A DNA stretch of 64,000 bases from Gammaproteobacteria bacterium (lineage in GTDB: Bacteria > Pseudomonadota > Gammaproteobacteria > QZLD01), in contig JAWSVB010000022.1 of the NCBI GenBank assembly GCA_033852135.1, forward strand, positions 101,936-165,935. The letters run 5' to 3'. The translations under genes and the position numbers were made by a program. A model generated the notes under the pieces. It was not told the origin of the DNA and did no database searches. It was given only the letters and a program-made list of their open reading frames with translations. Shown piece by piece: positions 1 to 59,320 of this stretch; the stretch's first letter is position 1, and every line of letters starts with the position of its first letter.

Positions 1-2496
1 AAAATATTAGAGCCACAAAAAATTGGAGAGAATGGGTATTTTTTTATATTTAAAAGTGATGGGTATTTGTTGCTACACCCAGTGCTTGCAGGACAAAATG
101 GGAGTAAATTAATAAATCCTGTATCAGGTAACAGTATGTTAATTGATATGAAAAATGCAGCAATGTCTAATGAAAGACTATTGAAATATATATGGGATAG
201 GCCAGATGATAAGGGCAACTATCGTTATAAGAAAAAAGCTTTCCTAGCGTATTACCAGCCACTTGATTGGTATGTGGTGACCTCAGTTTACAATGATGAT
301 ATCGATTTATTAACATCAACTTTAGTTACAAGCGCTAAGGTAATTTTCTTTATTTCAATTTTAGTATCATTAATTCTTTCGCTACTTTTAATTAGAAGCA
401 TTACTAAACCCCTTAACGATTTAGTAGGAGCAATATCTGGTACTGACAATACAGGGGTTCCTACCGTTGAAATCCCAGAGGGAAACCTGGAAGAGATTAA
501 AGTTTTAAGTCGCACTATGAACTTAATGATATCAAGGATTAAAGAATATCAAATTAACTTTATAGATAGTGAATTAAAATTTAAGAGTTTGGTTGAATCT
601 GTAACAGATTTAATTTGGGAACTAGATAAAGATGGTAACTATGTATATATAAGCCCAAGAATTTATGATTTATTAGGCTATACACCTGAAGAAGTAATTG
701 GGAATAGCCCTATGATGTTTATGGATTCAGAAGAAACCCAAGCTATTTCTCCATTTTTAGAACAGATATTTGCAGATGGAAAAGGGTTTCAGAATTTAGA
801 AAGCAAATGTTTTCATAAGGATGGGACGCCGCGTACTATTGAAGTATCAGCTGCCCCATTTTTTAATGATAAAGGTGAATTACAGGGTTTAAGGGGGGTT
901 ACCCGCGATATAACAGAAAAAATAAAAGTTGCCAGAGAGCTACATGAAAGTGAGGAAAAGTTTAAGTTGCTTGCAGATCAAATGTTGCTCGGAATTCTAA
1001 TTGTTAAAGATGGGCTGTATAAATATTATAACGATGCGGTACTGGAGATATTTGGTACAACTAAACAACAAATGGACTCATTAGGCCCTTATGATCTTCA
1101 AACCTTAATTCACCCTGATGATAGGGCGTTTGTAATGGACCAGTTAAAGAAAAAGGAAAGAGGGCATAAAGACATAGTAATTAATTACGATTGGCGCCTT
1201 ATGTCTAGTAATGGCAAGACTAAATGGGTTGAGTCCTGGTCTAAAACTATAGATTTTGATGGAGAGACAGCTGATTTTGTACTTTTGTACGATATAACCG
1301 AGAGAAAAGACGCAGAGAATGAAGTTACACATTTAAGAAACTATCTCTCCAATGTGATTAACTCAATGCCATCGATATTAGTTGGAGTTGATGTTGAGGG
1401 TAAGATTACTCAGTGGAATAAAACAGCGGTAGACCGGACTAATTTGTGTGCTGAAAAAGTTATGGGTAAACATTTAAGCCAAGTATTGCCTAACTTAAAA
1501 CCAGTGTTTAAAAAGATAGAGCAGAGTATTAAAGCAAATAAATCAGTGCAGACAAAAATATCATATCAAACCAAAGAAAGTAACAGTGTGGTACAAGAGG
1601 TAACAGTATACCCGCTAGAAGCGGATGGAGTTGAAGGAGCCGTAATTCGTATTGACGATATTTCAGAAAAAGTACGTATGCAGGAGATGATGATACAAAG
1701 TGAAAAGATGCTCTCTATTGCCGGGCTTGCTGCAGGAATGGCTCATGAGATAAATAATCCTTTGGCAGGAATGATGCAAACTGCCAGTGTTATGTCTAAC
1801 CGCCTTATAAAAAAAGTAGATATGCCAGCAAATAATGATGCTGCAGAGCACGCAGGAACTACGGTTGATGCAATAAAGCAGTTTATGGATGAGCGTGATA
1901 TCCCTCGTATGATTAACGCAATAAACGAGTCGGGAAAAAGGGCTGCGATTATTGTTAATAATATGCTTAATTTTGCTCGCAAGGATGATGGTGGAGTAAT
2001 AGCTTCGCAAATAAATGAAATAATCCGTGTTTCGATTGAGCTGGCCGAAACAGATTACAACATGAAAAAACGTTATGATTTTAAGAAGGTATCTATAGAT
2101 ACTGAGTTCGGCCAAAATCTTCCTGATCTTTACTGTGACCAAGCTCAAATCCAGCAAGTGATTTTTAATCTTTTGCGTAATAGCGCTCAAGCAATGCAAG
2201 AAGCACAAATAGAATCACCACAAGTGCGCATTCGAACTAGCTTTAATAGTGACAACAACAAAGTGTTGATTGAACTATTTGATAATGGTCCAGGTATGGC
2301 AGAGGAGGTTCGTAAAAGAGTATTCGAACCTTTCTTTACCACTAAACCTACAGGTATCGGAACAGGGCTAGGTCTAAGCGTATCGTATTACATCATCGTC
2401 GAAGAGCATGGAGGGGAGATGTATTTAGACTCCGCACCAGGTGCTGGGACTAAATTCACAATAGCTTTACCGCTTGATAGAGGGGAAAGTTCATGA
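1..2496 (+). CDS. Sensor histidine kinase, 5'-truncated at window edge (Cache-like periplasmic end, TM, HAMP, 3x PAS, HisKA, HATPase)
   Basis: Frame 1 is open from nt 1 with no stop before the listed ORF at 67 ('KILEPQKIGENGYFFIFKSDGYLLLHP' is Cache-like), so the gene starts upstream of the window. TM segment 'VIFFISILVSLILSLLLI'; H-box 'SEKMLSIAGLAAGMAHEINNPLAGM'; G1/G2 ATPase motifs 'DNGPGM...GIGTGLGLS'. Confidence 0.85.
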   Translation, partial: KILEPQKIGENGYFFIFKSDGYLLLHPVLAGQNGSKLINPVSGNSMLIDMKNAAMSNERLLKYIWDRPDDKGNYRYKKKAFLAYYQPLDWYVVTSVYNDDIDLLTSTLVTSAKVIFFISILVSLILSLLLIRSITKPLNDLVGAISGTDNTGVPTVEIPEGNLEEIKVLSRTMNLMISRIKEYQINFIDSELKFKSLVESVTDLIWELDKDGNYVYISPRIYDLLGYTPEEVIGNSPMMFMDSEETQAISPFLEQIFADGKGFQNLESKCFHKDGTPRTIEVSAAPFFNDKGELQGLRGVTRDITEKIKVARELHESEEKFKLLADQMLLGILIVKDGLYKYYNDAVLEIFGTTKQQMDSLGPYDLQTLIHPDDRAFVMDQLKKKERGHKDIVINYDWRLMSSNGKTKWVESWSKTIDFDGETADFVLLYDITERKDAENEVTHLRNYLSNVINSMPSILVGVDVEGKITQWNKTAVDRTNLCAEKVMGKHLSQVLPNLKPVFKKIEQSIKANKSVQTKISYQTKESNSVVQEVTVYPLEADGVEGAVIRIDDISEKVRMQEMMIQSEKMLSIAGLAAGMAHEINNPLAGMMQTASVMSNRLIKKVDMPANNDAAEHAGTTVDAIKQFMDERDIPRMINAINESGKRAAIIVNNMLNFARKDDGGVIASQINEIIRVSIELAETDYNMKKRYDFKKVSIDTEFGQNLPDLYCDQAQIQQVIFNLLRNSAQAMQEAQIESPQVRIRTSFNSDNNKVLIELFDNGPGMAEEVRKRVFEPFFTTKPTGIGTGLGLSVSYYIIVEEHGGEMYLDSAPGAGTKFTIALPLDRGESS

Positions 2497-2511
2497 TGGG
2501 GCAGGCGCAGT

Positions 2512-2883
2512 ATGAATAATTCAATTTTAATTGTTGATGATGAACTTTTTATTCGGCAAAGTCTGAATGATTTTTTTAAAGATAGTCAATGGATTACATT
2601 CATAGCAAGCAGTGGAGAGGAAGCTTTAGAAATTCTTGAGCAGGAGAGCCCTTCTGCAGCAATTGTAGATATAAGAATGATGGGAATGAATGGTGATGAA
2701 TTTATTCGGCAAGCAAGAGATGTAAAACCGGAAATGTGTTTTGTGATATGTACAGGGTCACCTGAATATAAACCATCGTATGACCTTCTTCAGCTATCAC
2801 AAGTGTCAGAACAAATATATAGAAAACCGATTGATGATATGGAAAATCTGGAAAACCATATATCAAGTTTAATTAGTAATTAA
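2512..2883 (+). CDS. Single-domain response regulator (CheY-like receiver only)
   Basis: 'ILIVDDE' acidic pair, phospho-acceptor Asp in 'AIVDIRMMGMNG', 'CTGS' and 'YRKP' Lys. No output domain. Starts 16 nt after the HK1 stop. Confidence 0.85.
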   Translation: MNNSILIVDDELFIRQSLNDFFKDSQWITFIASSGEEALEILEQESPSAAIVDIRMMGMNGDEFIRQARDVKPEMCFVICTGSPEYKPSYDLLQLSQVSEQIYRKPIDDMENLENHISSLISN

Positions 2884-2910
2884 CATGAACAGTTATTAAG
2901 CCTTTTTATA

Positions 2911-2980
2911 GGTTAGATAGGTTAGATAGGTTAGATAGGTTGGATGGGTTAGATAGGTTGGATGGGTTAGATAGGTTAGA
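2911..2980. repeat. Tandem 9-bp repeat, about 7.8 copies (GGTTAGATA / GGTTGGATG variants)
   Basis: Direct reading gives GGTTAGATA x3, GGTTGGATG, GGTTAGATA, GGTTGGATG, GGTTAGATA, then a partial GGTTAGA. Lies between the receiver stop (2883) and the HK2 start (3003). Confidence 0.95.
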
Positions 2981-3002
2981 AGTTAAGTAGGTAAATTAAA
3001 AC

Positions 3003-5375
3003 ATGATTTTAAGGCGTAAAGTAAATATAAGGAACTCAGTAGCAACCAGGTTGTTAAAGGTTGTGTTCTGTTTTTATATTGCATTTGCTCTTTTAGTCAC
3101 TCTTTCCCACATGTTTATTGAATATAGCTATCAGAAAGGAGATGTAAATAAATCGTTAGTTGAATTCCAGCCAACTATCGAATCAACTCTTGCAATGAAT
3201 TTATGGCATATGGATGACCAATCACTTAAATCAACAATAGATAGCATCATTAAAATCCCTTTAATAGTTGGTATTAAGATAAAAGATGAATCAAAAAATA
3301 TAATTGCAGTTGATGGAGTAGTTTCTGAAGCTGATTTTTCTGGAAAGATTGAACAAGATATTGATTTTCTAGGGTTAAAGAGCAATATAAATGACTTACA
3401 AACTAATTCATATAATCTTGAAGTTTTCCAACATACATTTCCAATTTACTATAGATATAAAGGGCAACAAAGACTATTAGGTGAAGTAACACTCTTTTCT
3501 AACTCATCGGTTATTTTTGATAGAGTAAAAGTTCAGTTCTTACTTTTGGTAATAAATTCAGTACTTAAATCGTTAGCTCTGTGGGTGTTTTTCCTACTTA
3601 TATCAAACTATATATTGCGTCGCCCATTAGAATCAATTGCGGAGGCGGCTGAAAATATCAGTGTGGAAAACCTTAGTGATTTTAAAATTAAAATAAAGTC
3701 TGCAGGAAACGATGAATTAAGCGTTATAGAAAATTCATTTAATGAAATGATAAAAAAACTCTCAGATTCTATAAATAAACAGAAGGGGGCAGAACAAAAT
3801 TTAAGAGAAAATGAGATTAAATTTAGAACGCTTGTAGAGAATGTTCCCGGAGTAACTTATCGTTGTATTAATGATGAACCTTGGACAATGATATACCTAA
3901 GTGATGAGATAGAAAACTTATCAGGCTACCAACGTTCAGATTTTATAAATAATAATAAACGTACATTTGCATCAATAATTCATATTGAGGACACCACCTT
4001 CATTTCAAAAGCAGCAGAAAAAGCTATTAAGAATAGAACAACTTATTCATTTGAATATCGCATAGTTCGTGCAAATGGTGAAATTCGCTGGGTATATGAA
4101 AAGGGACAGCCAATATTTGATGAGAACGGTGAATTACAGTTTTTTGATGGTGTTATTATCGATATTACCGAAAGAAAACAAGCTGAAAGTGAGATAAGAA
4201 AACTACGAAAGTACCTTACAAACATTATTGACTCAATGCCTTCATCCTTAGTTGGTGTAGATGAAAGTCTAAAAATAACACAATGGAATAAAACCATTGA
4301 AGATACGACAGGGATTGCCGCAGTAGATGCATATGGAAAATCAATAGAAGATATTTTACCGCAAATGCAATCTGAGTTAGGGAAAATATCATGTAGCCTG
4401 CATACCCGAACAGTACAACGTAATCAGATAAAAAGAGGGGTAGATGAGACCGGCATATGTTATGAAGACGTCACCATTTATCCCTTAATTGCAAACGGGG
4501 TTAAGGGTGCAGTTATTCGCATAGATGACATTACCGAAAAAGTAAGGATGGAAGAGATACTGATTCAGAGTGAAAAAATGCTTTCAGTTGGAGGTTTAGC
4601 CGCAGGGATGGCTCATGAGATAAACAATCCATTAGCAGGCATGGTGCAAACAGTAAATGTGATGTCAAACAGGTTGATTGAAAAATCAGATATGCCAGCC
4701 AATATAGAAGCAGCTAAAGAAGCTGGAACAACCATAGAAGCAATCAATAAATTTATGCATATTCGTGATATTCCGCGGATGATTGCTACTATAAATGAAT
4801 CTGGCAAAAGAGCATCAGCCATAGTTAACAATATGCTCAGTTTTGCTCGCAAAGGGAGCAGTGAAAAAGCAACAGTGAACTACATAGAGTTAGTTGATAA
4901 TACGATTGATTTGGCAGTGACAGATTACAACCTTAAGAGTAACTATGACTTTAAACAAGTTGACGTTATTAGAGAATATAAAGATAAAACTGTATTTATT
5001 GAATGTGAACCATCACAGATTCAGCAAGTTATATTAAATCTAATTCGAAATGCTGCTCAAGCAATGCAGGATGCCAAAATACCATCTCCAAAATTGACCG
5101 TTCGTATCAGCCACGATAAAGACACAGCAATGGTTAAAACTGAGATAGAAGATAATGGACCAGGTATAGATAAAGAGACATTAAAACGGATCTTTGAACC
5201 TTTTTATACGACAAAACCAGTAGGTGTGGGAACAGGACTAGGGTTGAGCGTTTCATATTTCATCATAGCTGATAATCATAATGGAGAGATGCATGTTGAG
5301 TCTGTATCAGGCCAAGGTACGAGATTTACAATAAGTTTGCCTGTTAACAGCATAAAACAACAAATAGGTGTATAA
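3003..5375 (+). CDS. Sensor histidine kinase (2 TM periplasmic sensor, HAMP, PAS x2, HisKA, HATPase); paralog of HK1
   Basis: TM 'VVFCFYIAFALLVTLSHMFI' and 'LALWVFFLLISNYIL'. HAMP-like 'RRPLESIAEAAENIS'. H-box 'SEKMLSVGGLAAGMAHEINNPLAGMVQT'. 'DNGPGI...GVGTGLGLS'. Confidence 0.88.
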   Translation: MILRRKVNIRNSVATRLLKVVFCFYIAFALLVTLSHMFIEYSYQKGDVNKSLVEFQPTIESTLAMNLWHMDDQSLKSTIDSIIKIPLIVGIKIKDESKNIIAVDGVVSEADFSGKIEQDIDFLGLKSNINDLQTNSYNLEVFQHTFPIYYRYKGQQRLLGEVTLFSNSSVIFDRVKVQFLLLVINSVLKSLALWVFFLLISNYILRRPLESIAEAAENISVENLSDFKIKIKSAGNDELSVIENSFNEMIKKLSDSINKQKGAEQNLRENEIKFRTLVENVPGVTYRCINDEPWTMIYLSDEIENLSGYQRSDFINNNKRTFASIIHIEDTTFISKAAEKAIKNRTTYSFEYRIVRANGEIRWVYEKGQPIFDENGELQFFDGVIIDITERKQAESEIRKLRKYLTNIIDSMPSSLVGVDESLKITQWNKTIEDTTGIAAVDAYGKSIEDILPQMQSELGKISCSLHTRTVQRNQIKRGVDETGICYEDVTIYPLIANGVKGAVIRIDDITEKVRMEEILIQSEKMLSVGGLAAGMAHEINNPLAGMVQTVNVMSNRLIEKSDMPANIEAAKEAGTTIEAINKFMHIRDIPRMIATINESGKRASAIVNNMLSFARKGSSEKATVNYIELVDNTIDLAVTDYNLKSNYDFKQVDVIREYKDKTVFIECEPSQIQQVILNLIRNAAQAMQDAKIPSPKLTVRISHDKDTAMVKTEIEDNGPGIDKETLKRIFEPFYTTKPVGVGTGLGLSVSYFIIADNHNGEMHVESVSGQGTRFTISLPVNSIKQQIGV

Positions 5376-5408
5376 CATAAATAATGAGCATATATCTTTA
5401 AATATTCT

Positions 5409-5426
5409 ACAGTTATAACTGTAGGC
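5409..5426. promoter_or_regulatory. Perfect 18-bp palindrome CTACAGTTATAACTGTAG (candidate operator, or weak terminator without a T-run)
   Basis: Seen directly, 34 nt after the HK2 stop and about 135 nt upstream of the MEDS-like gene. Confidence 0.5.
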
Positions 5427-5563
5427 CTATTTGAGTTTTTAGTGTTGATGAATGGACAGGCACTAATGAAAGATTAACCGTTTAACTGTTGGTTAGTCGC
5501 TAGAGATACTGTGTATTTAATAGCAGCTGGTATGTGAACAGTTGCTATGTGGGAGGAGAGATT

Positions 5564-6184
5564 ATGAATGATAATCATCAAAAAATCTCACTGGGTTTTG
5601 TGAAAGAAAAAGTAGATGTAGGAACTCATCTATGTCTTGTATTTACCGATAAAAAGGAAAGAGTTGATTCTTTGTTAAAATTTATTTTAGCAGGGATGGC
5701 AGATAATGAGCGCACAGCATGTTTTTCTGAAGTTATAACTGAAGCAGAGATAACAGAGTTTTTTAAACTAAATAATATCTCCTACGATGAACGTAAATCC
5801 AAGCAAGCAATAACCTTTGGTCGTACTAGTGATGTCTATTTTCAAGACAATACTTTTGACCCAGAAAGAATGCTTGGAATCTTAGAACAATTCTATACAG
5901 ATGCGATAGAAATGGGGTTTAGCGCCTCAAGAGTAATTGGAGAGATGTCTCCGAAGATACAAGATGTCACTGGCGGTGAGAGATTGCTGGAATACGAATC
6001 AAGAGTTACTAAATTACTTGAAAAGAGCCCGATAACAGCTGTTTGCCAATATGATGCAAATCAATTTGATGGAGCGACGATTATGGATGTATTGAAAGTG
6101 CACCCAAAGATGATTGTTAATGGCGTAGTTGTTGAAAATCCATTTTTTATAAAACCCGATGAATTTCTTGAAAATATCAAGTAA
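5564..6184 (+). CDS. Small cytoplasmic sensory-domain protein, possibly MEDS family (DcmR-like)
   Basis: ATG at 5564 follows a strong RBS GGGAGGAGAG (the listed ORF starts at 5534 with no RBS). About 206 aa, no TM. The motifs 'HLCLVF' and 'AVCQYD' recall MEDS domains as I remember them. The protein sits directly upstream of the soluble kinase HK3. The family assignment is from memory and not verified. Confidence 0.4.
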   Translation: MNDNHQKISLGFVKEKVDVGTHLCLVFTDKKERVDSLLKFILAGMADNERTACFSEVITEAEITEFFKLNNISYDERKSKQAITFGRTSDVYFQDNTFDPERMLGILEQFYTDAIEMGFSASRVIGEMSPKIQDVTGGERLLEYESRVTKLLEKSPITAVCQYDANQFDGATIMDVLKVHPKMIVNGVVVENPFFIKPDEFLENIK

Positions 6185-6200
6185 AAGGCATAGTTAGCAT

Positions 6201-7898
6201 ATGAGCTTTGAGGATGGTCTTTCAGCTAAAGTAATTGGGCAGATTGCAATGATGCAAGGTGTTGTAGCACAGCTGCCAGATGAGGTTTCTGTACTTGGTT
6301 TTGTTGCTAAAGGGTTATCCGATATTCCAGGTGTGAAAAAGGTAGATTATGTCTTATTCAATGATGAAGAAACATCAGTATTAGAATATGAAACAGAAGA
6401 ACTAAGGCACATATTTCCAATTGAATATAAGCAATCAAAATACTCATCATTAATATTTCACCTATCTGATAGATCTAAATTTGACCTGTATGCCCCTTAT
6501 ATCGGTAATTTTACCAATGTACTAGCAGTACTGTTTGAGGAGAGGCGTCAGCGCAAATCTAATGAGGCATTGTTAGAAAATCTTGAAGAGTTGGTGGATG
6601 AAAGAACAAAAGAGTTAAAACAAGAGATTGCTGAACGTAAAAATGCAGAGGCTGAGTTAGAGAGAACAAAAGACTACATATCAAATGTAATCGACTCTAT
6701 GCCATCTGCTCTAATATCAGTAAATGAAAACCTTGAAGTAACGCAATGGAATTTAAAAGCGGAGGAGATTACAGGGGTGCCAGCCCCAGATGCTTTTGGG
6801 ATGAAGCTGGATGATGTTTTTCCGCGCATGGGAAAAGAGCTGGAATTAATATCAAACAGTATACAAAACAAAGAGATAAAATTTGAGCAGAAAACAGCAT
6901 ACGAAGCAGAATCAGGTGTAGGTTATGAAGATATAACAATTTACCCTTTAGTAGCGATTGGGATTCAAGGTGCTGTTTTACGTATAGATGATGTCACCAG
7001 TAAAGTGCGTATGGAAGAGATGCTGGTACAAAGTGAGAAGATGCTCTCAATCGGAGGGCTTGCCGCAGGAATGGCGCATGAAATTAACAATCCATTAGCT
7101 GGGATGATGCAAACAGCAAATGTAATGCAAAATCGTTTAGTCGATAATGTTGATATTCCAGCAAATAGAAGAGCGGCAGAGGAGATTGGTGTGGATCTTG
7201 AAGCGATTGTTGGCTTTATGTCGGCTAGAGGAATTCCGCGCATGATACACGCGATAAAAGAGTCTGGTGTAAGGGTAGCTTCAATAGTCAATAATATGCT
7301 GCATTTTGCACAACAATCAGATGATGAAATTAATACAAGTAAAATTGCAGATATAATCGAGAACACTATTGGTTTAGTTTCTACAGATTACAATCTAAAG
7401 AAACAGTACGATTTTAAAAAAATTAATATTATTCGGGAGTTTCAAGAAGATCTACCTGAAATTGAGTGCCACTCATCCAAAATTCAACAGGCCATGTTGA
7501 ATCTATTTAGCAATAGTGCACATGCACTGCAACAAGCTAAAATTGAAAATCCAAAAATAATAATAAGATTAGCGATAGATGAGAAGCAAGATGATAAAGA
7601 TGCAATGGTACGGGTTGAGATTGAAGATAATGGCCCAGGTATTTCCAGTAAGTTAATAGGTAGATTATTCGAACCATTTTATACAACAAAACCTACAGGT
7701 GAGGGAAAAGGGTTAGGTTTAAGTGTTGCATATTTCATAATTACTGAAACTCATAAAGGAAAGATGTGGGTAGAGTCTAATGAGGGGGTAGGCACTAAAT
7801 TCATAATATGTTTGCCAGTAAAGCAAAATGGTAGCGATATAAGTATCGATAGAAATGTAGATAAAAATTCTATAAATTCAATGGATAACAAAGGTTAA
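6201..7898 (+). CDS. Soluble (no TM) histidine kinase: N-terminal domain, coiled coil, PAS, HisKA, HATPase; paralog of HK1/2/4
   Basis: Coiled coil 'LEELVDERTKELKQEIAERKNAEAELERTKDY'. H-box 'SEKMLSIGGLAAGMAHEINNPLAGMMQT'. 'DNGPGIS...GEGKGLGLS'. Confidence 0.88.
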   Translation: MSFEDGLSAKVIGQIAMMQGVVAQLPDEVSVLGFVAKGLSDIPGVKKVDYVLFNDEETSVLEYETEELRHIFPIEYKQSKYSSLIFHLSDRSKFDLYAPYIGNFTNVLAVLFEERRQRKSNEALLENLEELVDERTKELKQEIAERKNAEAELERTKDYISNVIDSMPSALISVNENLEVTQWNLKAEEITGVPAPDAFGMKLDDVFPRMGKELELISNSIQNKEIKFEQKTAYEAESGVGYEDITIYPLVAIGIQGAVLRIDDVTSKVRMEEMLVQSEKMLSIGGLAAGMAHEINNPLAGMMQTANVMQNRLVDNVDIPANRRAAEEIGVDLEAIVGFMSARGIPRMIHAIKESGVRVASIVNNMLHFAQQSDDEINTSKIADIIENTIGLVSTDYNLKKQYDFKKINIIREFQEDLPEIECHSSKIQQAMLNLFSNSAHALQQAKIENPKIIIRLAIDEKQDDKDAMVRVEIEDNGPGISSKLIGRLFEPFYTTKPTGEGKGLGLSVAYFIITETHKGKMWVESNEGVGTKFIICLPVKQNGSDISIDRNVDKNSINSMDNKG

Positions 7899-7903
7899 GT
7901 TAT

Positions 7904-9058
7904 ATGATTAAACTATTTAAAATAATAGCTGTTTTATCATTGTTAGCATTAATCGTAATACTGAATATGCAATCTGCATCTACTGTAAAGATTGGATTAG
8001 TTGCAGATTTAAGTAGTAGAAAAGCCAACCTTGGTGATTCTGTAAGAAATGGGCTGATTCTCGCGATAAATGAGATAAATCAACAAGGCGGTATAAATGG
8101 TCACAAGGTTGAATTATTAGTTCGAGATGGTAAATCTAACGAAGCTATTACCCAGCAACAAGCAACTAATTTAGTTGATAACTGTGTAAATCTAATAGTT
8201 GGACCTGTGCACAGTGCAATGGCAAATTCAGTAATAGAAGCGACTAAAGAAGCAGGTATATTGGTTATAAGTCCAACAGTTTCAACTGATAACCTCTCCG
8301 AAATTGATGATAACTTTTTCCGCATAAATACCAAATCATCCATTCAAGGTAATGACCTTGCAAGAGCATCAAAACTTAGGGGCGATAAGAAAGTATTATT
8401 GGTAGTGGACCAAGATAATAGTGAGTATACCGGGTCAGTAGCTCATGGTTTTAGAGAGAGAGCAAAACTACTGGATTTAGAAGTCATCGGTGAAATAGCT
8501 TTTACTAAGGAGCACGATACTACTAAATTGGTAGATAAAATCATCCAATACAAGGCTGATGCATTAGTCTTTATAACTAATGGCAAAGATGCAGCAAAAA
8601 TTATCCAGCTATATAACAAAGTTAGCAAACTACCAAACTTATATGGTGATATGTGGGCGAAGTGGAGCAATGTTAAAGAGTTTGGAGGTAAAGCTGTAAA
8701 TGGGATGGTTTTAGTTGGCATTAATAAGAATAAACAGAGCCAAGATAAAGAGGTGCAATTTGCCTCATCCTATAAACAGCTTTTTGGTTCAGAGTATACG
8801 ATACCAGCGGTTTATGCGTATGAGGCTGTACAATTATATGCTTTAGGTGCACAAAATGCCTCTAGCTTGGATAGCGATAAAATTAAACAATATATTTTGA
8901 AAATAGAGCAAATAGATGGAGTGGTGGATAACTATAAACTTGATATGTATGGTGATGCAATTCGAGAGTTTTCATATTTCCAAATTAAAGATAATAGATA
9001 TGAAAAGATAAATTTACCCAAAGAGTTACCTATAAAAATAGATAGTGTTAAAGAGTAG
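7904..9058 (+). CDS. Periplasmic binding protein, LivK/Leu-Ile-Val-binding family (Peripla_BP_6-like), signal peptide
   Basis: Signal peptide 'MIKLFKIIAVLSLLALIVILN'. 'VKIGLVADLSSRK...GINGHKVELLVRDGKSN' is typical of type I PBPs. No ABC permease or ATPase genes nearby. Confidence 0.75.
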   Translation: MIKLFKIIAVLSLLALIVILNMQSASTVKIGLVADLSSRKANLGDSVRNGLILAINEINQQGGINGHKVELLVRDGKSNEAITQQQATNLVDNCVNLIVGPVHSAMANSVIEATKEAGILVISPTVSTDNLSEIDDNFFRINTKSSIQGNDLARASKLRGDKKVLLVVDQDNSEYTGSVAHGFRERAKLLDLEVIGEIAFTKEHDTTKLVDKIIQYKADALVFITNGKDAAKIIQLYNKVSKLPNLYGDMWAKWSNVKEFGGKAVNGMVLVGINKNKQSQDKEVQFASSYKQLFGSEYTIPAVYAYEAVQLYALGAQNASSLDSDKIKQYILKIEQIDGVVDNYKLDMYGDAIREFSYFQIKDNRYEKINLPKELPIKIDSVKE

Positions 9059-10222
9059 ATGGTTAAAAATATGAATAATTATAAAACAGGAACAAAAAGA
9101 TTAATCAGAGCTGGAGCAATAATTGTTTTGCTAGCATTGGTTACTTGGCTATTACTATCCCTACTAATTTTAAAAGAGCCGGTAAAAATAGGTTTTTTAG
9201 CAGATTTAAGTACCAGAAAATCGCAGCTAGGTGTTGTGGCAAGAAACGGTGTGATTATGGCCGTAGATGAATTAAATGACAGAGGTGGAATAAACGGTAG
9301 AAAAGTTGAGCTTATTATTAGAGATATAAAATCAAGTAAAGATGAGGCAAAGCTTCAAACGTTAAAATTAATTGAAGATGGGGTAGATGTGATAATCGGA
9401 GGGTTTGTTAGCTCAATGGCCGCTCCTGTTCTTGAAGCTACAAAGAATAGTAATATCTTGCTAATAAGTCCTACAGTTGCAGCTGATAGTTTGTCAGGAA
9501 TTGATGATAATTTTATTCGGATTACCCCACAAGCATCAAAACATGGTAGTTCGCTTGCTGAGGCAGCTGGGTATATGGGAATTAAAAAAGTTACTTTGAT
9601 TCGCGATATCAAAAATGAAGAGTACTCAGGGGCTGTAGTTGATGGGTTTAAGAAAAAATGTGAAGAACAATCTATTCAAGTTATTGGTGATCTAGAGTTT
9701 GAAACCAAGCAAGACTTCCCTCAACTTGTTGAGCAATTGTCTAAGCTGCAGTCAGATGCTTTGGTATTTATCACCAGTGGAATCGATGCCGGTGCGATTA
9801 TTCAGCAATATGCTAGAAATAATAATGTTCCACATCTATTTGGCAGCATGTGGACAAAAGTTACAAAAGTAAATGAGTATGGTGGAAAAGCAGTAAATGG
9901 AATGTTTCTGGTAGATGTTTTTGCGAATAAAAATCCAGAAGTTAAAGAAGTAGAGTTTAATAAATCTTTCAAAGAGCGTTTTGGAATGGGATCAAATATG
10001 CCATCAAGGTATACATATGAATCTGTAAAGCTATTTGCTCAAGCTGCTGAGAAAGCAAATAGTGTAAAAACTGAAAAAGTAAAAACTGAAATTATTAATA
10101 TGAACCCTGTTGAGGGGATAACAGATAACTATCAGATTGATAAATATGGTGATGTTATTCGTGAACTATCCCTTTATCAGATTAAAAATCACCAGTACGA
10201 GTTGACTAATAAAACGAACTAA
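9059..10222 (+). CDS. Second LivK-type periplasmic binding protein (tandem paralog), N-terminal membrane anchor or signal
   Basis: 'VKIGFLADLSTRKSQLGVVARNGVIMAVDELNDRGGINGRKVELIIRDIKSS' is parallel to the upstream PBP. Hydrophobic N-terminus 'AIIVLLALVTWLLLSLLIL'. Confidence 0.75.
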   Translation: MVKNMNNYKTGTKRLIRAGAIIVLLALVTWLLLSLLILKEPVKIGFLADLSTRKSQLGVVARNGVIMAVDELNDRGGINGRKVELIIRDIKSSKDEAKLQTLKLIEDGVDVIIGGFVSSMAAPVLEATKNSNILLISPTVAADSLSGIDDNFIRITPQASKHGSSLAEAAGYMGIKKVTLIRDIKNEEYSGAVVDGFKKKCEEQSIQVIGDLEFETKQDFPQLVEQLSKLQSDALVFITSGIDAGAIIQQYARNNNVPHLFGSMWTKVTKVNEYGGKAVNGMFLVDVFANKNPEVKEVEFNKSFKERFGMGSNMPSRYTYESVKLFAQAAEKANSVKTEKVKTEIINMNPVEGITDNYQIDKYGDVIRELSLYQIKNHQYELTNKTN

Positions 10223-10342
10223 TACAAATAGCTAATTAATAAAAAGTGCAATAAATAGGATATATGTAAATGCAGAAAAAAATCAGTAAAGAAATGAACC
10301 AACAATACAAAAAGGTTGCGTTTAAATAGCAGGTTTTATGTA

Positions 10343-12601
10343 ATGGTTAATTTCTTTCATAACATAAGCATTCAAAGGTTTTTCAAGATTTATCTCTTGA
10401 TTGCTGTGTTATTACCGTTATTGGTTCTTGGCTTGGTAGGATTGACAATATCATCAAGCTTATTAAGGCATGAGATATTAAACGCAGATCATAGGCAGGT
10501 ACACCTTGCTGAATATGCTATCGAGCAGCACCTCCAAAGACCACTTGAGGATCTTCAGGTTATATCAAGCCTAATTCATAATATTTCAAAATCACAGCCA
10601 TCAAGAATCCAGAGAATTATCGAAAAAACTCAAGATGCGCATAGATATTTTGCAGCTATTCAAGTTGTTGATATTGATGGTCGAGTAATTGCTATATCCC
10701 CATTAAATAAAGATTTGATGGGTATTGATGTATCAGGACACAGATACTTCAATAAAATTAAAAGTTTAAATACTCCGTATTGGGGGGCATCATTTATATC
10801 GGAGCAGTTAGAGTTACCACTCGCATCACTAAGTATAAAAACAGATTATGGCTTTATTATCACAGGTTTTCTCAGATTAGATGATATTAGTGAAATCGGT
10901 AAAGGTAGGAGACAAGAAGAAACTAGTAATAATGATATTGATTCACGATTGTTGTTTATCACAGACCAGAATGGGGTATTTATTGCACACCCAGACAAAC
11001 AAAAAGTTATGATTCGTGAATATGACCAACAATATGCAAAAAGTATTAAGCAGTGGAATAGTGATATTTTAGTTAGTGAGGCTGAATATAATGAGCGTGA
11101 ATTCTTAGTAAATACGGTTATTATGCCAGAGACAAAATGGAAAATATCACTATATACTCCACTTGAAAATATCACTTCTCCAATTATAAAAACGGCAGTT
11201 ATATTACTGCTTTTAACTCTAGCAGTTACCGTATTAGCAATTATTGGCGGAGCAAAACTCAGTAGTAAAATATCTGGCTCTTTCAGTGAGTTGCTTAAGT
11301 CAGTAGATGCTATCGGCAAAGGGAAGTATGAAGTACCAATATCTCAAAGTAATTATAGAGAGTTTAACCAGCTTGCTGATTCATTTGAACAGATGGCACA
11401 AGAGGTAAAAGCAAGGGAGAAAGACCTCAAGGAAGCAGAGAGCTATATCTCCAATATTATTAATTCCATGCCATCAATATTGGTAAGTGTGAACAGAGAT
11501 CTAATAATTACGCAGTGGAACATGACTGCAAAAGATAAAACAGGGGTTGAGGCAGAAGATGCAAAAGGGAAAAATCTAGTGGAGCTTTTGCCTAATTTGC
11601 AGTCAGAAATCAGTAAAATAGAGAGCAGCATAGAAAGTCGGCAAGTTAAATATAGCAGGAAAAAGCCACTTTATTCTGAGAGCAATGTAAGCTACGAGGA
11701 TATAACAATTTTTCCACTAATAGCTAACGGAGTACAAGGAGCTGTTATTCGTGTTGATGATGTTACGGATAAAGTTCGTCTTGAAGAGATGCTGGTACAA
11801 AATGAGAAAATGTTATCCATTGGTGGGTTGGCAGCTGGTATGGCGCATGAAATCAATAATCCGCTAGCAGGGATGATGCAAACAGCAGATGTTATTCAGA
11901 ATCGTTTAGTAAATAAAATTGATTTGCCAGCAAATAAAAAAGCAGCAGAAGAAGCAGGTATTACTATTGAAGGGGTTTCTAAATTTATACATGCCAGAGA
12001 TATTCCTCGTATGATTGAAACAATAAAAGAGTCTGGTAAACGTGCGGCTACTATCGTTAATAATATGCTCACATTTGCACGTAAGGCAGACCACAGTAAA
12101 TCAAAGGTAAATGTAGAGCGTTTATTAGAAGACACATTAGATCTAGCAATAACCGATTACAATTTAGAAAAAGAGCATGATTTTAAACAGATAAAAATCA
12201 TAAAAGAGTTTGAATCTAGCTTGCCATTATTGCTATGTGAAGAAACTAAAATTCAGCAGGTGATTTTAAATTTACTGCTCAACAGTGCCCAAGCAATATT
12301 TGGCAGCAGTATAAAAGCACCTGTAATTCATATCCGTACAAGTCTGTCTAAAGATAGCAAAATTATTAATATCGAGATTGAAGATAATGGCCCGGGGATG
12401 GATAACGAAACAAGTAAAAGAATATTTGAACCGTTTTTTACAACAAAAGATGTTGGTCAAGGGACAGGTTTAGGTTTAAGTGTTTCATATTTTATTGTTA
12501 CAGAGAATCATGGTGGTGAGATGAGTGTTACATCAAAGACAGGGGAAGGCACTAAGTTTTTAATATCCCTGCCAGTAGAAGGAAACAAAAATGAATACTA
12601 G
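10343..12601 (+). CDS. Sensor histidine kinase with ~250-aa Cache-like periplasmic domain, TM, HAMP, PAS, HisKA, HATPase (paralog HK4)
   Basis: ATG at 10343 (the listed ORF uses an in-frame TTG at 10316). TM1 'IYLLIAVLLPLLVLGLVGLTI', TM2 'AVILLLLTLAVTVLAIIGG'. H-box 'NEKMLSIGGLAAGMAHEINNPLAGMMQT'. 'DNGPGM...GQGTGLGLS'. Confidence 0.85.
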   Translation: MVNFFHNISIQRFFKIYLLIAVLLPLLVLGLVGLTISSSLLRHEILNADHRQVHLAEYAIEQHLQRPLEDLQVISSLIHNISKSQPSRIQRIIEKTQDAHRYFAAIQVVDIDGRVIAISPLNKDLMGIDVSGHRYFNKIKSLNTPYWGASFISEQLELPLASLSIKTDYGFIITGFLRLDDISEIGKGRRQEETSNNDIDSRLLFITDQNGVFIAHPDKQKVMIREYDQQYAKSIKQWNSDILVSEAEYNEREFLVNTVIMPETKWKISLYTPLENITSPIIKTAVILLLLTLAVTVLAIIGGAKLSSKISGSFSELLKSVDAIGKGKYEVPISQSNYREFNQLADSFEQMAQEVKAREKDLKEAESYISNIINSMPSILVSVNRDLIITQWNMTAKDKTGVEAEDAKGKNLVELLPNLQSEISKIESSIESRQVKYSRKKPLYSESNVSYEDITIFPLIANGVQGAVIRVDDVTDKVRLEEMLVQNEKMLSIGGLAAGMAHEINNPLAGMMQTADVIQNRLVNKIDLPANKKAAEEAGITIEGVSKFIHARDIPRMIETIKESGKRAATIVNNMLTFARKADHSKSKVNVERLLEDTLDLAITDYNLEKEHDFKQIKIIKEFESSLPLLLCEETKIQQVILNLLLNSAQAIFGSSIKAPVIHIRTSLSKDSKIINIEIEDNGPGMDNETSKRIFEPFFTTKDVGQGTGLGLSVSYFIVTENHGGEMSVTSKTGEGTKFLISLPVEGNKNEY

Positions 12602-12968
12602 TAATAAAAGCGTTTTGATTTTAGATGATGAACCGTTTGTAAGGGATAGTCTTGTAGATTATTTTGAAGATTGCCTTTGGACCGTATTTTGTTCTGGGCA
12701 GGAGGATGAGGCGCTAGATATTATAAAAAACTATAAAATAGATTGTGCCATAGTGGATATTCGAATGGCAGGTATTGGTGGGGACCAATTTATTCGTGAA
12801 GCGAATAAACTGCCCAATAAAATTGGATTTGTAGTTTGTACCGGTTCTCCTGAGTATGAAATTCCAGCTGATTTAGCCGCATTAGAAAATGTTTCAAATA
12901 CTATTTTTAGTAAACCTGTGACAGAGCTAAATAAATTAGAGCAAGAATTACTGAAGTTAGCAGGATAA
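12591..12968 (+). CDS. Single-domain response regulator (receiver only), translationally coupled to HK4
   Basis: ATG overlaps the HK4 stop (ATGAATACTAG). 'VLILDDEP', 'AIVDIRMAGIGG', 'CTGS', 'FSKP'. Paralog of the receiver at 2512. Confidence 0.85.
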   Translation: MNTSNKSVLILDDEPFVRDSLVDYFEDCLWTVFCSGQEDEALDIIKNYKIDCAIVDIRMAGIGGDQFIREANKLPNKIGFVVCTGSPEYEIPADLAALENVSNTIFSKPVTELNKLEQELLKLAG

Positions 12969-13044: not shown

Positions 13045-14352
13045 ATGAGTGATACTCAAATTACAGTGCTAGCAATTGATGATGATGAATACATCAGGCA
13101 AAGTTATATCGATTGTTTGGAAGACTATGAATACAAAGTATTTATAGCTGAAAATGGCAGAGTTGGTTTAGAGCTTTTTGAACAGCACATTGATGAAATT
13201 GATATCGTAATTGTTGACCTAAGAATGCCAGAGGTTGATGGCTTTCAAGTAGTTGCACATGTGAAAAAAAGTAAGCCAGAGCTACCAATAATTGTAGTTT
13301 CCGGTAATGGAGTAATAAGTGATGCAGTTGAGGCTCTTCATCAAGGAGCGTGGGATTACTTGCTAAAACCGATAGAAGATTTTTCTGTATTGATTCACTC
13401 TGTAAATAGCTGCTTGGATAAGGCGCGTCTTATTAATGAGAATGCAGAGTATCAACTCCATCTGGAAAGTATGGTTGCAGATAGAACTAATGAATTATTT
13501 GAAGCAAATATTGAGCTGAAAAGGCATAAAAGTCACCTGCAAGAGCTGGTTGAAGAGAGAACATCAAAATTAAATGAATCATTAGAAAATCTAAATAATA
13601 CAAAAGATTATTTAATCCAATCTGAAAAAATGGCAGCCCTAGGTGGTTTGGTTGCTGGTGTTGCGCATGAGATTAATACTCCAGTTGGGATTGGTGTAAC
13701 GGCTGCCTCACACCTCGAAGGTGAGACCAGAAAGTTTACTAAAGCCTATGAAAACGGCGAACTAACCAGAAAGGCGTTAGATAGCTATGTGAAAATAGTA
13801 AATGAAAGTTGTGGAATGATTCTGTCCAATATGAATCGTGCTGCAGACTTAATCCATAGCTTCAAGCAAGTTGCAGTTGACCAATCTAGCCAAGAAAATC
13901 GTGAGTTTAATGTTAAAAAGTATTTGCATGAGATCTTTGCAAGCCTGAATCCAAAGTTTAAGAATACCAGTTTAACTATCAATGTAGAGTGCGCAGATGA
14001 CCTGACCATTAACTCCTACCCTGGGACTATGTCTCAGATTATCACCAACCTTGCCTTAAACTCCCTTATCCATGGCTTTGAAGATAAAGAAAATGGAACT
14101 ATAGATTTAAAAGTTGTGAAAGAAAATGGAAATATTAAGATAAATTATTCAGATACCGGCCACGGAATATCAGAAGAAAATTTAACTAAAATATTCGACC
14201 CATTTTTCACAACTAAGAGGGGTTATGGGGGGAGTGGACTTGGCTTACATATAGTTTTCAATTTGGTCACCCAAACCCTTGGTGGAAGTATTGAATGCAA
14301 TTCGAAAGAGGGTGAAGGGGCTGAGTTCATTATTGAATTTCCATACTCTTAG
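13045..14352 (+). CDS. Hybrid response regulator-histidine kinase (N-terminal receiver, coiled coil, HisKA of a different subfamily, HATPase)
   Basis: Receiver 'VLAIDDDEYIRQ...IVIVDLRMPEVDG...VVSGNG...LLKP'. H-box 'SEKMAALGGLVAGVAHEINTPVGIG'. 'DTGHGI...GGSGLGLHIV'. Confidence 0.85.
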   Translation: MSDTQITVLAIDDDEYIRQSYIDCLEDYEYKVFIAENGRVGLELFEQHIDEIDIVIVDLRMPEVDGFQVVAHVKKSKPELPIIVVSGNGVISDAVEALHQGAWDYLLKPIEDFSVLIHSVNSCLDKARLINENAEYQLHLESMVADRTNELFEANIELKRHKSHLQELVEERTSKLNESLENLNNTKDYLIQSEKMAALGGLVAGVAHEINTPVGIGVTAASHLEGETRKFTKAYENGELTRKALDSYVKIVNESCGMILSNMNRAADLIHSFKQVAVDQSSQENREFNVKKYLHEIFASLNPKFKNTSLTINVECADDLTINSYPGTMSQIITNLALNSLIHGFEDKENGTIDLKVVKENGNIKINYSDTGHGISEENLTKIFDPFFTTKRGYGGSGLGLHIVFNLVTQTLGGSIECNSKEGEGAEFIIEFPYS

Positions 14353-33372: not shown

Positions 33373-34947
33373 TTATTCAGTTGCTTCTTTAACCATCTCT
33401 TCGGTTTCAGCAGCTACTTCTTTAACCGCTTCAACAGTATCTTCAGCAGCTTCTTGCACTTGCTCAGATATTTCTGCTTCTGCAGTTTCAATTTTCTCTG
33501 CCGTAGTTTCAGCTGTAGGTTGATCTGTTTCTACAGCCTTAACAGGGGCTGTTTCTTTTGCTTCAGTAGCCATTGTGGTTTGGGCTTGCTCAACAGGAGC
33601 GTGAATCGCAGTTGCCTCTTCAGCGTGCGCTTCACCCATAGGGATGCTAGGAATAACTTGGAAGCAGATCATCGCAACAATCGTTGGAAGGGCTGCACCA
33701 GCAAGAATTCCAAGAGGGCTGATGCCATCTTCGCCGAATGACTTTTTCAAAATACCAAAACCAGCAGGGTTTGGAGCGTTCGCAATAACTGTTAAACCGC
33801 CACCAGCAACAGCACCAGCAACCAAGCCATATTTTTGACCATCAGTAAGATCAACTAGTGAACCTAAGTAGGTTAAGGCTGCATTGTCAGTGATAGCTGT
33901 TAGACCCGTAGCACCTAAGAATAGAGTGAAATCCCCAAGCTTTGTCAGTACTTCTTGTAGCCACCATTGTTGCATTGTGCCTAAAGTAACCAGACCAGCA
34001 AGGAAGAAACCAACAAGTAGTGATTCTTTTAACTTTAGTTCGTCTTGATACTCTTTGGTAACAGCAACAAAACCAAGGAAAAACATGAATAGACCCATGA
34101 AGAACACCATGTGATGTGCAGTGTATACAACAAGAGCAAGGAATATAAGATGGATCATAGTTATCCACCAAGTTGGAGTCATTGTGTTTTCATGACCCTG
34201 CTTATCTTCTAGTTTGCCAATAAGTTCATTTTTAAAGGCAAATGCTACAGCGAATGTACAAATAACAACAGAGACAGCAGCTTTAAAACCAAAGTTGGTT
34301 ATCATGTGCATGATGCCCCAATGCCATTTACCCGCAACCATTAATACTGGTGGTGCCGCAAAGTGGGTCAGGGTTCCGCCAATCGAAATATTTACAAACA
34401 ATAGACCAATTGTTGCGTACATGAATTTTTTCGACATCTTATTGCTGTAGAAGTATTCAAGCAAAATAAGAGCAGTAACAGTCATAGCCGCAGGCTCAGT
34501 AATAAAAGAACCAAGTAGAGGACCAAGGATAAGAGCTGAGATATAAAATGCCATTCTACCCGGGAATGGTAAAACCTTAGCAGCAGTTTTAATCATCTTT
34601 TCAGCAAGCAGAATGACAGGCCTAGTACCAGCCATACACATAATTACAAATACAAACATAGGTTCGGTGTAATTTTGACTATTAAGATAGTGGATCGCTC
34701 CACCAACTACATTATGTGCATCATCATAAACAACGAAGCCGTTGGTAAATGAATAAAAGATAAGGAATACAGCGGCCCACATTCCAAATACAGCTTCAAC
34801 TTCACCTAAGAAGTGAAATAGATTTTCACCAATAGATCCGTGAGGGTATTTGTGGGATATCTCTTCAAATTTTTTCACCATAAAGGTGTGTATAACAGCA
34901 CAGGCAAAAAGGACTGTACCAATTATTTGAATGGTTGTTGGATTCAT
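33373..34947 (-). CDS. Polytopic inner-membrane transporter-like protein with acidic low-complexity C-terminal tail
   Basis: At least 10 hydrophobic helices. The C-terminal ~90 aa is Ala/Glu/Thr/Val-rich ('TAETTAEKIETAEAEISEQVQEAAEDTVEAVKEVAAETEEMVKEATE'). Family not recognised (a Na+/H+ antiporter-like fold is only a guess). Confidence 0.55.
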   Translation of the reverse strand: MNPTTIQIIGTVLFACAVIHTFMVKKFEEISHKYPHGSIGENLFHFLGEVEAVFGMWAAVFLIFYSFTNGFVVYDDAHNVVGGAIHYLNSQNYTEPMFVFVIMCMAGTRPVILLAEKMIKTAAKVLPFPGRMAFYISALILGPLLGSFITEPAAMTVTALILLEYFYSNKMSKKFMYATIGLLFVNISIGGTLTHFAAPPVLMVAGKWHWGIMHMITNFGFKAAVSVVICTFAVAFAFKNELIGKLEDKQGHENTMTPTWWITMIHLIFLALVVYTAHHMVFFMGLFMFFLGFVAVTKEYQDELKLKESLLVGFFLAGLVTLGTMQQWWLQEVLTKLGDFTLFLGATGLTAITDNAALTYLGSLVDLTDGQKYGLVAGAVAGGGLTVIANAPNPAGFGILKKSFGEDGISPLGILAGAALPTIVAMICFQVIPSIPMGEAHAEEATAIHAPVEQAQTTMATEAKETAPVKAVETDQPTAETTAEKIETAEAEISEQVQEAAEDTVEAVKEVAAETEEMVKEATE

Positions 34948-58996: not shown

Positions 58997-59072
<76 letters not shown>

Positions 59073-59153
59073 ATATTCAAAGGCCCTGGTAAATCCAGGG
59101 TTTTTTAGTATAGAAGTTTATTTAAGGTTTATACTGAAACTGCACCAACTCAA

Positions 59154-59227
59154 GGCTAGGTAGCAAAGTGGTTATGCAGCGGCCTGCAAAGCCGTAGACG
59201 CCGGTTCGATTCCGGCTCTAGCCTCCA
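59154..59227 (+). tRNA. tRNA-Cys (anticodon GCA)
   Basis: GGCTAGGTAGCAAAGTGG...CCTGCAAAG...GGTTCGATTCCGGCTCTAGCCTCCA. Confidence 0.9.
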
Positions 59228-59232
59228 AATTC

Positions 59233-59320
59233 GGGGATGTGGTGGAATTGGTAGACACGAGAGACTTAAAATCTCTTGGCTATTGCGGCCGTGCCGGTTC
59301 GATTCCGGCCATCCCCACCA
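59233..59320 (+). tRNA. tRNA-Leu (anticodon TAA), class II with long variable arm
   Basis: GGGGATGTGGTGGAATTGGTAGACAC...CTTAAAAT...GGTTCGATTCCGGCCATCCCCACCA. Confidence 0.9.

Follow-up and report, generated by a model that had tools for sequence, protein, structure and literature searches.

A length-polymorphic 9-bp tandem repeat between a receiver gene and a sensor kinase gene in an uncultured marine gammaproteobacterium

The window analyzed in this study is a stretch of 64,000 nucleotides (contig JAWSVB010000022.1 of GCA_033852135.1, positions 101,936 to 165,935) from an uncultured, low-GC (~36%) marine gammaproteobacterium. It carries a 9-bp tandem array in the gap between the gene of a stand-alone response receiver and the gene of a membrane sensor histidine kinase, termed HK2. 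An earlier reading of the letters without database searches, referred to below as the sequence-only reading, had described this array and had proposed that it serves either as a promoter element with adjustable spacing or as an iterated regulator-binding site. Our results confirm the observation and support the interpretation in part: the copy number is variable, whereas the array appears to be neither a promoter element nor a conserved regulator array. Three genomes of one species carry three different alleles. We favor, with a probability of about 0.65, the explanation that the array is a slipped-strand variable-number tandem repeat (VNTR) in a transcribed spacer, neutral or nearly so; for this explanation, we infer the slippage mechanism, the co-transcription of the receiver gene and HK2, and the neutrality or mild effect of the array.

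According to Tandem Repeats Finder (TRF), the array occupies positions 2908–2980 of the forward strand, with a period of 9, 8.1 copies, 87% matches, no indels, and a score of 118. The letters at 2911–2980 agree exactly with the roughly eight copies that the sequence-only reading had listed. With A standing for GGTTAGATA, B for GGTTGGATG, and a for the partial unit GGTTAGA, the window allele reads A A A B A B A a. Three A units (2911–2937) are followed by B (2938–2946), A (2947–2955), B (2956–2964), A (2965–2973), and the partial unit (2974–2980). On the forward strand, three blocks can be distinguished. The three perfect A units at 2911–2937 make up the part that differs between strains, in which the first B is preceded by 3, 2, or 0 A units. 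The B A B A block at 2938–2973 is a perfect 18-bp duplication of B A, and the terminal B A a block at 2956–2980 is the stable right end common to all three array-bearing genomes. Additionally, every B unit creates a GGAUG motif (2942–2946 and 2960–2964, 18 nt apart) and a mini open reading frame (ORF) of three codons, AUG-GGU-UAG, with its ATG at 2944 or 2962. Within the spacer, GGA is confined to the B units (2942 and 2960), and the first of the two sits in the loop of a weak hairpin formed by the array. The array also adds six TAGGT motifs that resemble Shine–Dalgarno (SD) sequences. Moreover, the array lies within a C-free stretch of 99 nt (2903–3001, forward strand; only G, A, and U as RNA), which overshoots it at both ends and is the longest in the window, the next longest measuring 60 nt.

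The head-to-tail repetition of the 9-bp unit is far beyond chance. When the window was shuffled 60 times with its dinucleotides preserved, the top-scoring array had a mean TRF score of 47 and a maximum of 67, compared with 118 for the real array. The runner-up tandem array in the window scores 41. The array is thus the sole strong tandem repeat in 64 kb, in line with the earlier remark that it is atypical for the chromosomal backbone, and no other strong array was found in ~106 kb of related loci. Two details of the sequence-only reading require correction. The gap measures 119 bp (2884–3002) rather than 120 bp, and the array takes up 70–73 of these 119 bp (~60%) rather than essentially the whole gap. 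The remainder is unique sequence, with 24–27 bp on the left and 22 bp on the right, the latter including a putative ribosome-binding site.

A comparison of copy number among related genomes, which had been suggested as a check of the sequence-only reading, revealed length polymorphism, with three alleles in three genomes that are 96–98% identical in the flanks (3–11 kb compared). The window allele, AAABABAa, has seven units plus the partial unit in a gap of 119 bp. For GCA_041156845.1 (contigs L003/L152), the array is B A a, which corresponds to two units plus the partial unit; the gap of 74 bp is exactly 45 bp, or five units, shorter than that of the window, in register. For GCA_041156805.1, the allele is A A B ... 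B A a, with at least four units plus the partial unit, and the assembly is broken inside the array: contig L153 ends with ...ATA A A B GGTT (6397–6430), and contig L151 starts with B A a AGTTAAG... (1–27). Both contigs of this genome (428 kb and 75 kb) therefore end in the array, through either mixed alleles or an ordinary repeat-induced break. Variation is confined to the left of the array, and the right-hand B A a is present in three of three genomes. Furthermore, outside the repeat the three strains show 100% identity in the spacer, with the flanking genes differing by 2–4%. By every criterion tested, the array is a bacterial VNTR locus. It shares with the loci used in multiple-locus VNTR analysis (MLVA) the short head-to-tail units, the in-register differences between strains, the conserved unique flanks, the internal unit variants, and the presumed slipped-strand origin; we found no substantive difference, except that this is an undescribed locus in an uncultured deep-sea gammaproteobacterium.

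These alleles were read from metagenome assemblies and contigs, and two of the assemblies break at the array. Both facts would suit an artefact in which short-read mis-assembly created the copy-number differences, but the remaining evidence makes such an artefact extremely improbable. Logan contigs from two sequencing runs (L001, L002, and L004) are 100% identical to the window and independently reproduce both ends of its array. They break inside the array exactly at the 31-mer GGTTAGATAGGTTGGATGGGTTAGATAGGTT, which occurs twice, the behavior expected from assembly with k = 31. In addition, the junction TTTTTATAGGTTGGATG of the short allele in GCA_041156845.1 is not present in the long allele of the window, so the short allele is not the product of repeat collapse by a k-mer assembler. 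Finally, the left ends of the three alleles differ consistently and in register.

A second tandem-repeat polymorphism was observed in the same strains. The 18-bp sequence CAAGAAGAAACTAGTAAT is single-copy in the window (10913–10930), where it lies in the ORF at 10316–12601 that encodes HK4, a dCache/PAS histidine kinase. In the sister strains, it is perfectly duplicated in frame, adding six amino acids (L003, 13911–13946; L151, 7958–7993), and this duplication is the only other indel in the 11.4 kb compared between the window and L003. Judging from these alignments, indels in the lineage evidently arise mainly through slippage at short direct repeats.

Related species lack the array. GCA_041156785.1 (L154), with 84–88% nucleotide identity to the window, has a gap of 46 bp before HK2; L005, from the metagenome-assembled genome (MAG) "Gammaproteobacteria bacterium BHT14_PHBH_gam1", has 78–80% identity and a gap of 48 bp; and L007 has 75–80% identity and a gap of 48 bp. 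The gene order around HK2 in these three loci is the same as in the window. In the more distant L009 and L012, whose HK2 shares ~57% amino acid identity, there is no array and no stand-alone receiver gene, and HK2 directly follows the kinase gene HK1 after 34 and 30 bp, respectively. Since relatives at 75–88% identity keep the gene order without the array, the array is recent and species-specific rather than a conserved regulatory element. The spacer lengths fit this precisely (119 − 47 = 72 = 8 × 9; 74 − 47 = 27 = 3 × 9), and all growth of the spacer is thus the array, with nothing else inserted.

The alignments with these relatives also point to the source of the unit. The native sequence AGTTAAGTAGGTAAATTAAAAC before the HK2 start codon (2981–3002, forward strand), which holds the putative SD motif TAGGT at 2988–2992, is homologous to GAAGTTAGGTAGGCAAA of the array-less relatives. 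At the insertion point, the ancestral sequence TTTTTAGAAGTTAGGTAGG / TTTTTAGAAGTTAGGTAGGCAAA... aligns with TTTTTATAGGTTAGATAGG..., and the native 9-mer AGTTAGGTA equals the repeat unit at seven of nine positions. Based on this resemblance, the native 9-mer adjoining the ribosome-binding site of HK2 appears to be the seed of the unit.

A dispersed repeat family or mobile element was considered and rejected, as the exact 9-mer has a single other, isolated occurrence in the window and collection-wide matches share only the repeat. The collection-wide scan for GGTTRGATRGGTTRGATRGG returned, among the matches listed, more than 120 metagenome stretches and 17 viral stretches. These matches are unrelated arrays, some being GATA/GATTA satellites of eukaryote-like type and others belonging to large viral contigs, and BLAST aligns them with the window over the repeat alone. 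Perfect GGTTAGATA arrays of at least 13 copies were seen in unrelated metagenome contigs (L030, 5577–5699; L124, 1708–1829; L063; L035; and L133), often within GATAGATTA-type satellites and many from sample Ga0126342. Among the large viral contigs L014 (the same as L137), L141, and L148, several share an identical 122-bp array of the 9-bp units GGGTTAGAT/GGGTCTGAA.

The genes on both sides of the array are a receiver and a kinase, as the sequence-only reading had stated and as their domain content bears out. The receiver gene upstream (2512–2883, forward strand) encodes a CheY-like protein that matches Pfam Response_reg only. HK2 downstream (3003–5375, forward strand) encodes CHASE5-like, HAMP, two PAS, HisKA, and HATPase_c domains, and its start codon is confirmed by the alignment of orthologues, in which conservation sets in precisely at the ATG. 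A distance of 22 nt separates the array from this ATG, and the putative SD motif at 2988 lies 10 nt before the ATG. In a survey of pre-start sequences, TAGGT and AGGT were common in the genome, which uses short and weak SD sequences. An unrelated gene on the reverse strand (33373–34947) has the pre-start sequence AAGTTAGGTAGGAAAAT-ATG, nearly identical to the ancestral HK2 pre-start sequence GAAGTTAGGTAGGCAAAAAAT-ATG of L154, and GTTAGGTAGG thus seems to recur as a ribosome-binding context in this genome. HK2 and the receiver gene lie on the same strand, and a scan of the gap found no terminator-like hairpin after the receiver gene. The spacers of the relatives, which are 30–48 bp long and separate genes on the same strand, look like the operon type.

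At the RNA level, the predicted folds of the spacer with 8, 3, or 0 units match those of shuffled controls (z of +0.4 to +0.8), and the alleles with 8 and 3 units share an identical predicted hairpin at the start codon. The array alone forms a weak G-U/A-U hairpin (−9.3 kcal/mol, z of −2.45), and the minus strand gives 0 kcal/mol. A structured RNA or riboswitch was rejected, since the whole-spacer folds resemble shuffles (z of +0.4 to +0.5) and an Rfam search returned nothing at the array, its only matches in the window being three distant tRNAs. A G-quadruplex in the TBA-like GGTTGGATGGG was likewise rejected; the G-quadruplex option of ViennaRNA leaves the minimum free energy unchanged, and there are no G3 motifs. 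Coding by the array, including an N-terminal extension of HK2, was also rejected, as each A unit places a TAG in frames 0 and 1. The frame shared with HK2, frame 2 (LDRLDR...), stops at 2988, and only a TTG-initiated ORF of 16 codons is possible.

The sequence-only reading had taken the array as the promoter region of HK2, with copy-number changes altering the promoter spacing. An array placed between or within the −35 and −10 hexamers could indeed toggle transcription with each unit gained or lost; the array sits in the intergenic gap immediately before HK2, and the spacer of mycobacterial senX3-regX3, filled with mycobacterial interspersed repetitive units (MIRUs), has promoter activity (PMC4213456). 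Nevertheless, such a switch is highly improbable here. A scan of the gap for sigma-70-like promoters found no site at threshold. The only promoter-like hexamers, and weak ones, accompany the unique left part of the spacer (2884–2907, forward strand): TTAACA (2880–2885) and TTTTAT (2904–2909), spaced by 18 bp, which form the best pair under lenient settings (9/12), with the invariant A2 missing. Alleles of 8 and 3 units do not differ in this pair, the only weak promoter-like site, and since it lies entirely to the upstream side of the array, the copy number cannot change the −35/−10 spacing. For the only pair that draws on array sequence, TAGATA-18-TAAATT (8/12), the transcription start would fall on or within the start codon. 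Whichever promoter serves HK2, the array would thus lie downstream of it and be transcribed. Moreover, a step of 9 bp and the observed difference of 45 bp would abolish the spacing of hexamers rather than tune it, and the relatives manage with spacers of 30–48 bp. A second proposal of the sequence-only reading, that the array is an iterated site for a response regulator of this cluster, was not supported either. More broadly, a series of protein-binding sites might serve a DNA-binding regulator or, at the RNA level, CsrA/RsmA acting on the two GGAUG motifs 18 nt apart. The array is a regular series of identical sites, and the confinement of GGA to the B units, with the first GGA in the hairpin loop, would agree with the latter. 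CsrA sites have the consensus core GGA, frequently as part of GGAUG, and sites ~10–60 nt apart are bridged by one CsrA dimer; we take the GGAUG of the B unit to resemble the CsrA/RsmA core. We still regard binding of either kind as very unlikely. The array and every GGA are missing from the orthologous spacers at 75–88% identity, the array is absent from all five related loci (L154, L005, L007, L009, and L012), no array-less relative carries GGA in its spacer, and the short allele has a single B unit. The receivers found in the cluster are stand-alone REC proteins, including the one at 12591–12968, a REC-HATPase_c protein (13045–14352), and an upstream REC-DUF3369-HD-GYP protein, none with a DNA-binding output; this search covered the receivers of the cluster, and a regulator encoded elsewhere in the genome is possible. 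Direct repeats of the OmpR/PhoB type are spaced 10–11 bp apart, and LytTR sites are spaced ~21 bp apart. The period of the array is exactly 9 bp without indels, off the helical repeat of 10.5 bp, which would place successive sites on different faces of the helix. Finally, no GGA overlaps the ribosome-binding site, no CsrA-like ORF is found in the window, and the rest of the window shows no enrichment of the exact unit.

For the favored explanation, a slipped-strand VNTR in a transcribed spacer, we propose that a 9-bp segment from just upstream of the HK2 ribosome-binding site was amplified by replication slippage or unequal recombination. Gains and losses in register, in steps of 9 or 18 bp, would then have produced at least three alleles in one species. 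B is defined by two substitutions that never occur apart, so it presumably originated a single time and spread by copying. Transcription of the spacer is most likely, either as the intercistronic RNA of a multi-kinase operon or at least as the 5′ untranslated region (5′ UTR) of HK2. The array leaves the native ribosome-binding site and the start-codon context untouched and has essentially no stable structure. Most likely, it has no effect at all or shifts HK2 translation in a modest, graded way, which might arise from the longer untranslated spacer and the six extra TAGGT motifs; a mild graded effect on recruitment of the 30S subunit to HK2 is conceivable. Rho loads on C-rich, G-poor RNA, and a C-free, G-rich insert should therefore add little transcriptional polarity. 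The expansion was probably tolerated because of this low added polarity and the intact native ribosome-binding site.

Several observations weigh against this explanation. None of the three genomes sampled from the species has lost the array, and each retains no fewer than two full units and the partial unit; this retention could reflect selection, recent ancestry, or the sample size (n = 3). The complete identity of the unique spacer parts, compared with the 2–4% divergence of the flanks, hints at some constraint on the region. By analogy with the promoter activity of the repeat-filled senX3-regX3 spacer (PMC4213456), this spacer may contain a promoter despite the negative consensus scans. Finally, the break of GCA_041156805.1 exactly at the array could stem from heterogeneity within the sample and hence from a high mutation rate.

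An alternative explanation is an RNA-level rheostat, a contingency-type locus in which a hypermutable array would tune the output of HK2 relative to HK1 and the receiver through its copy number. The tuning would act through the length of the 5′ UTR or intercistronic RNA and the number of TAGGT motifs serving as decoy or standby sites. According to PMC4679880, citing Attia and Hansen 2006, the 5′ UTR of Moraxella catarrhalis uspA2 carries AGAT repeats in 6–23 copies depending on the strain, and UspA2 expression depends on their number; this is the precedent and the closest analogue for a rheostat. The two repeats are alike in being heteropolymeric and purine-rich, in containing AGAT, in lying upstream of a start codon, and in having a strain-dependent copy number, and the effect in both would be on the expression level, not on promoter spacing. 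The uspA2 unit is 4 bp long, whereas the unit here is 9 bp long, and the array lies before a sensor kinase gene and has no counterpart in sister species. Consistent with a rheostat, three conspecific genomes have three alleles, the contigs of GCA_041156805.1 end exactly at the array, as could happen with mixed alleles in the sample, the six extra TAGGT motifs repeat the putative SD motif of HK2 itself, a common type in the genome, and the unique spacer parts are perfectly conserved between strains. We nonetheless consider it a possible but unlikely explanation. The strains are 2–4% divergent, and a few slippage events over that time require no hypermutation; the A/B interruptions lower slippage; and the predicted start-codon fold does not differ between the alleles. 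In addition, HK2 encodes a sensor kinase in a deep-sea bacterium with a free-living or biofilm lifestyle and is not a member of the surface or restriction-modification classes typical of contingency loci, and no second such locus is present in 64 kb. A more specific version, in which slippage varies the number of both TAGGT and GGAUG motifs and thereby sets the stoichiometry of HK2 to the co-transcribed HK1 and receiver, is more speculative still and rather improbable. If true, it would give heritable cell-to-cell diversity in signal wiring and would extend contingency-type variation from the surface antigens of pathogens to the sensory networks of environmental bacteria.

The slipped-strand VNTR can also be compared with other repeats in bacterial spacers. 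The closest specific precedent is the MIRU-filled spacer of senX3-regX3. These MIRUs are restricted to M. leprae and the Mycobacterium tuberculosis complex, with three 77-bp copies in H37Rv compared with two 77-bp copies and one 53-bp copy in CDC1551, and promoter activity of the spacer has been demonstrated (PMC4213456). Both loci have a repeat-filled spacer between two-component genes on the same strand, a narrow lineage, and a strain-dependent copy structure. In contrast, MIRUs form a dispersed family with many loci, and their units are 53–77 bp long there (~40–100 bp in general), whereas the unit here is 9 bp long and is found at a single locus in the available sequence; the MIRU spacer is promoter-active, whereas no promoter is detectable by consensus here. 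Furthermore, MIRUs carry short ORFs that overlap the neighboring stop and start codons, whereas in our array every A unit closes two frames with a TAG, and a stop at 2988, ahead of the ATG, ends the third.

The TAACTGA heptamer repeats of marine Beggiatoaceae, Cyanobacteria, and Bacteroidetes occur in 169 sets in one genome, in 2–6 copies and mostly a few nucleotides from a start codon, and post-transcriptional (translation-level) roles have been proposed for them (PMC4679880). They resemble our array as short intergenic direct repeats just upstream of start codons in low-GC marine gammaproteobacteria. They differ in being a single fixed heptamer distributed genome-wide, whereas the array is one locus that ends 22 nt before the ATG. 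The Beggiatoaceae TAACTGA system itself was rejected, as the window contains no TAACTGA dimers even with two mismatches allowed.

Contingency loci are defined by high-frequency localized hypermutation that causes phenotypic or antigenic variation, with the repeat in an ORF or at promoter elements (PMC11868660). Our array shares with the simple sequence repeat (SSR) contingency loci described by Moxon a tandem repeat next to a gene that is length-polymorphic between strains. In contrast, SSR contingency loci are typically mono- to heptanucleotide tracts, and the array here has an interrupted 9-bp unit. It also differs in position, being non-coding and neither flanked nor spanned by a −35/−10 pair. 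The gene class and the lifestyle are likewise atypical of such loci, which are characteristic of host-restricted pathogens.

As it stands, the finding matters little, being one more intergenic VNTR. The array could serve as a strain marker for the population, and it offers a clean case of a repeat born beside a ribosome-binding site, since the array-less ancestral state is kept in sister species. If the copy number does tune HK2 synthesis, the locus would be a rare example, outside host-adapted pathogens, of repeat-mediated heritable tuning of kinase stoichiometry in a signaling operon. Regarding the organism, the names of related MAGs trace to a study of biofilms on biodegradable plastic in the deep sea, with PHBH samples from a bathyal hydrocarbon seep off Hatsushima at 855 m (PMC10817984). 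The Logan matches of the window (SRR26541473/4) also contain a related species from the same MAG set.

Beyond the array, the upstream kinase HK1 (67–2496, forward strand), whose 5′ end is cut by the window edge, comprises Cache, PAS, HisKA, and HATPase_c domains and is separated from the receiver gene on the same strand by 15 bp. In L005, the ORF orthologous to HK1 contains a tandem repeat of CACAGCTTAGCCCTT at 2852–2913 (15 bp in 3.1 copies, or 30 bp in 2.1 copies), which is absent from HK1 of the window. Compared with positions 1–12600 of the window, the signaling cluster is modular: the MEDS-HK3-2xPBP block is missing in L009, and one PBP is left in L012. The conserved flanks of the cluster in L009 and L012 include Lactamase_B, REC-HD-GYP, a dCache kinase, REC, REC-HATPase, a methyltransferase, and RNase H. 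Elsewhere in the window, the three tRNA genes form a cluster at 58997–59317 on the forward strand, with Rfam scores of 62–70 bits.

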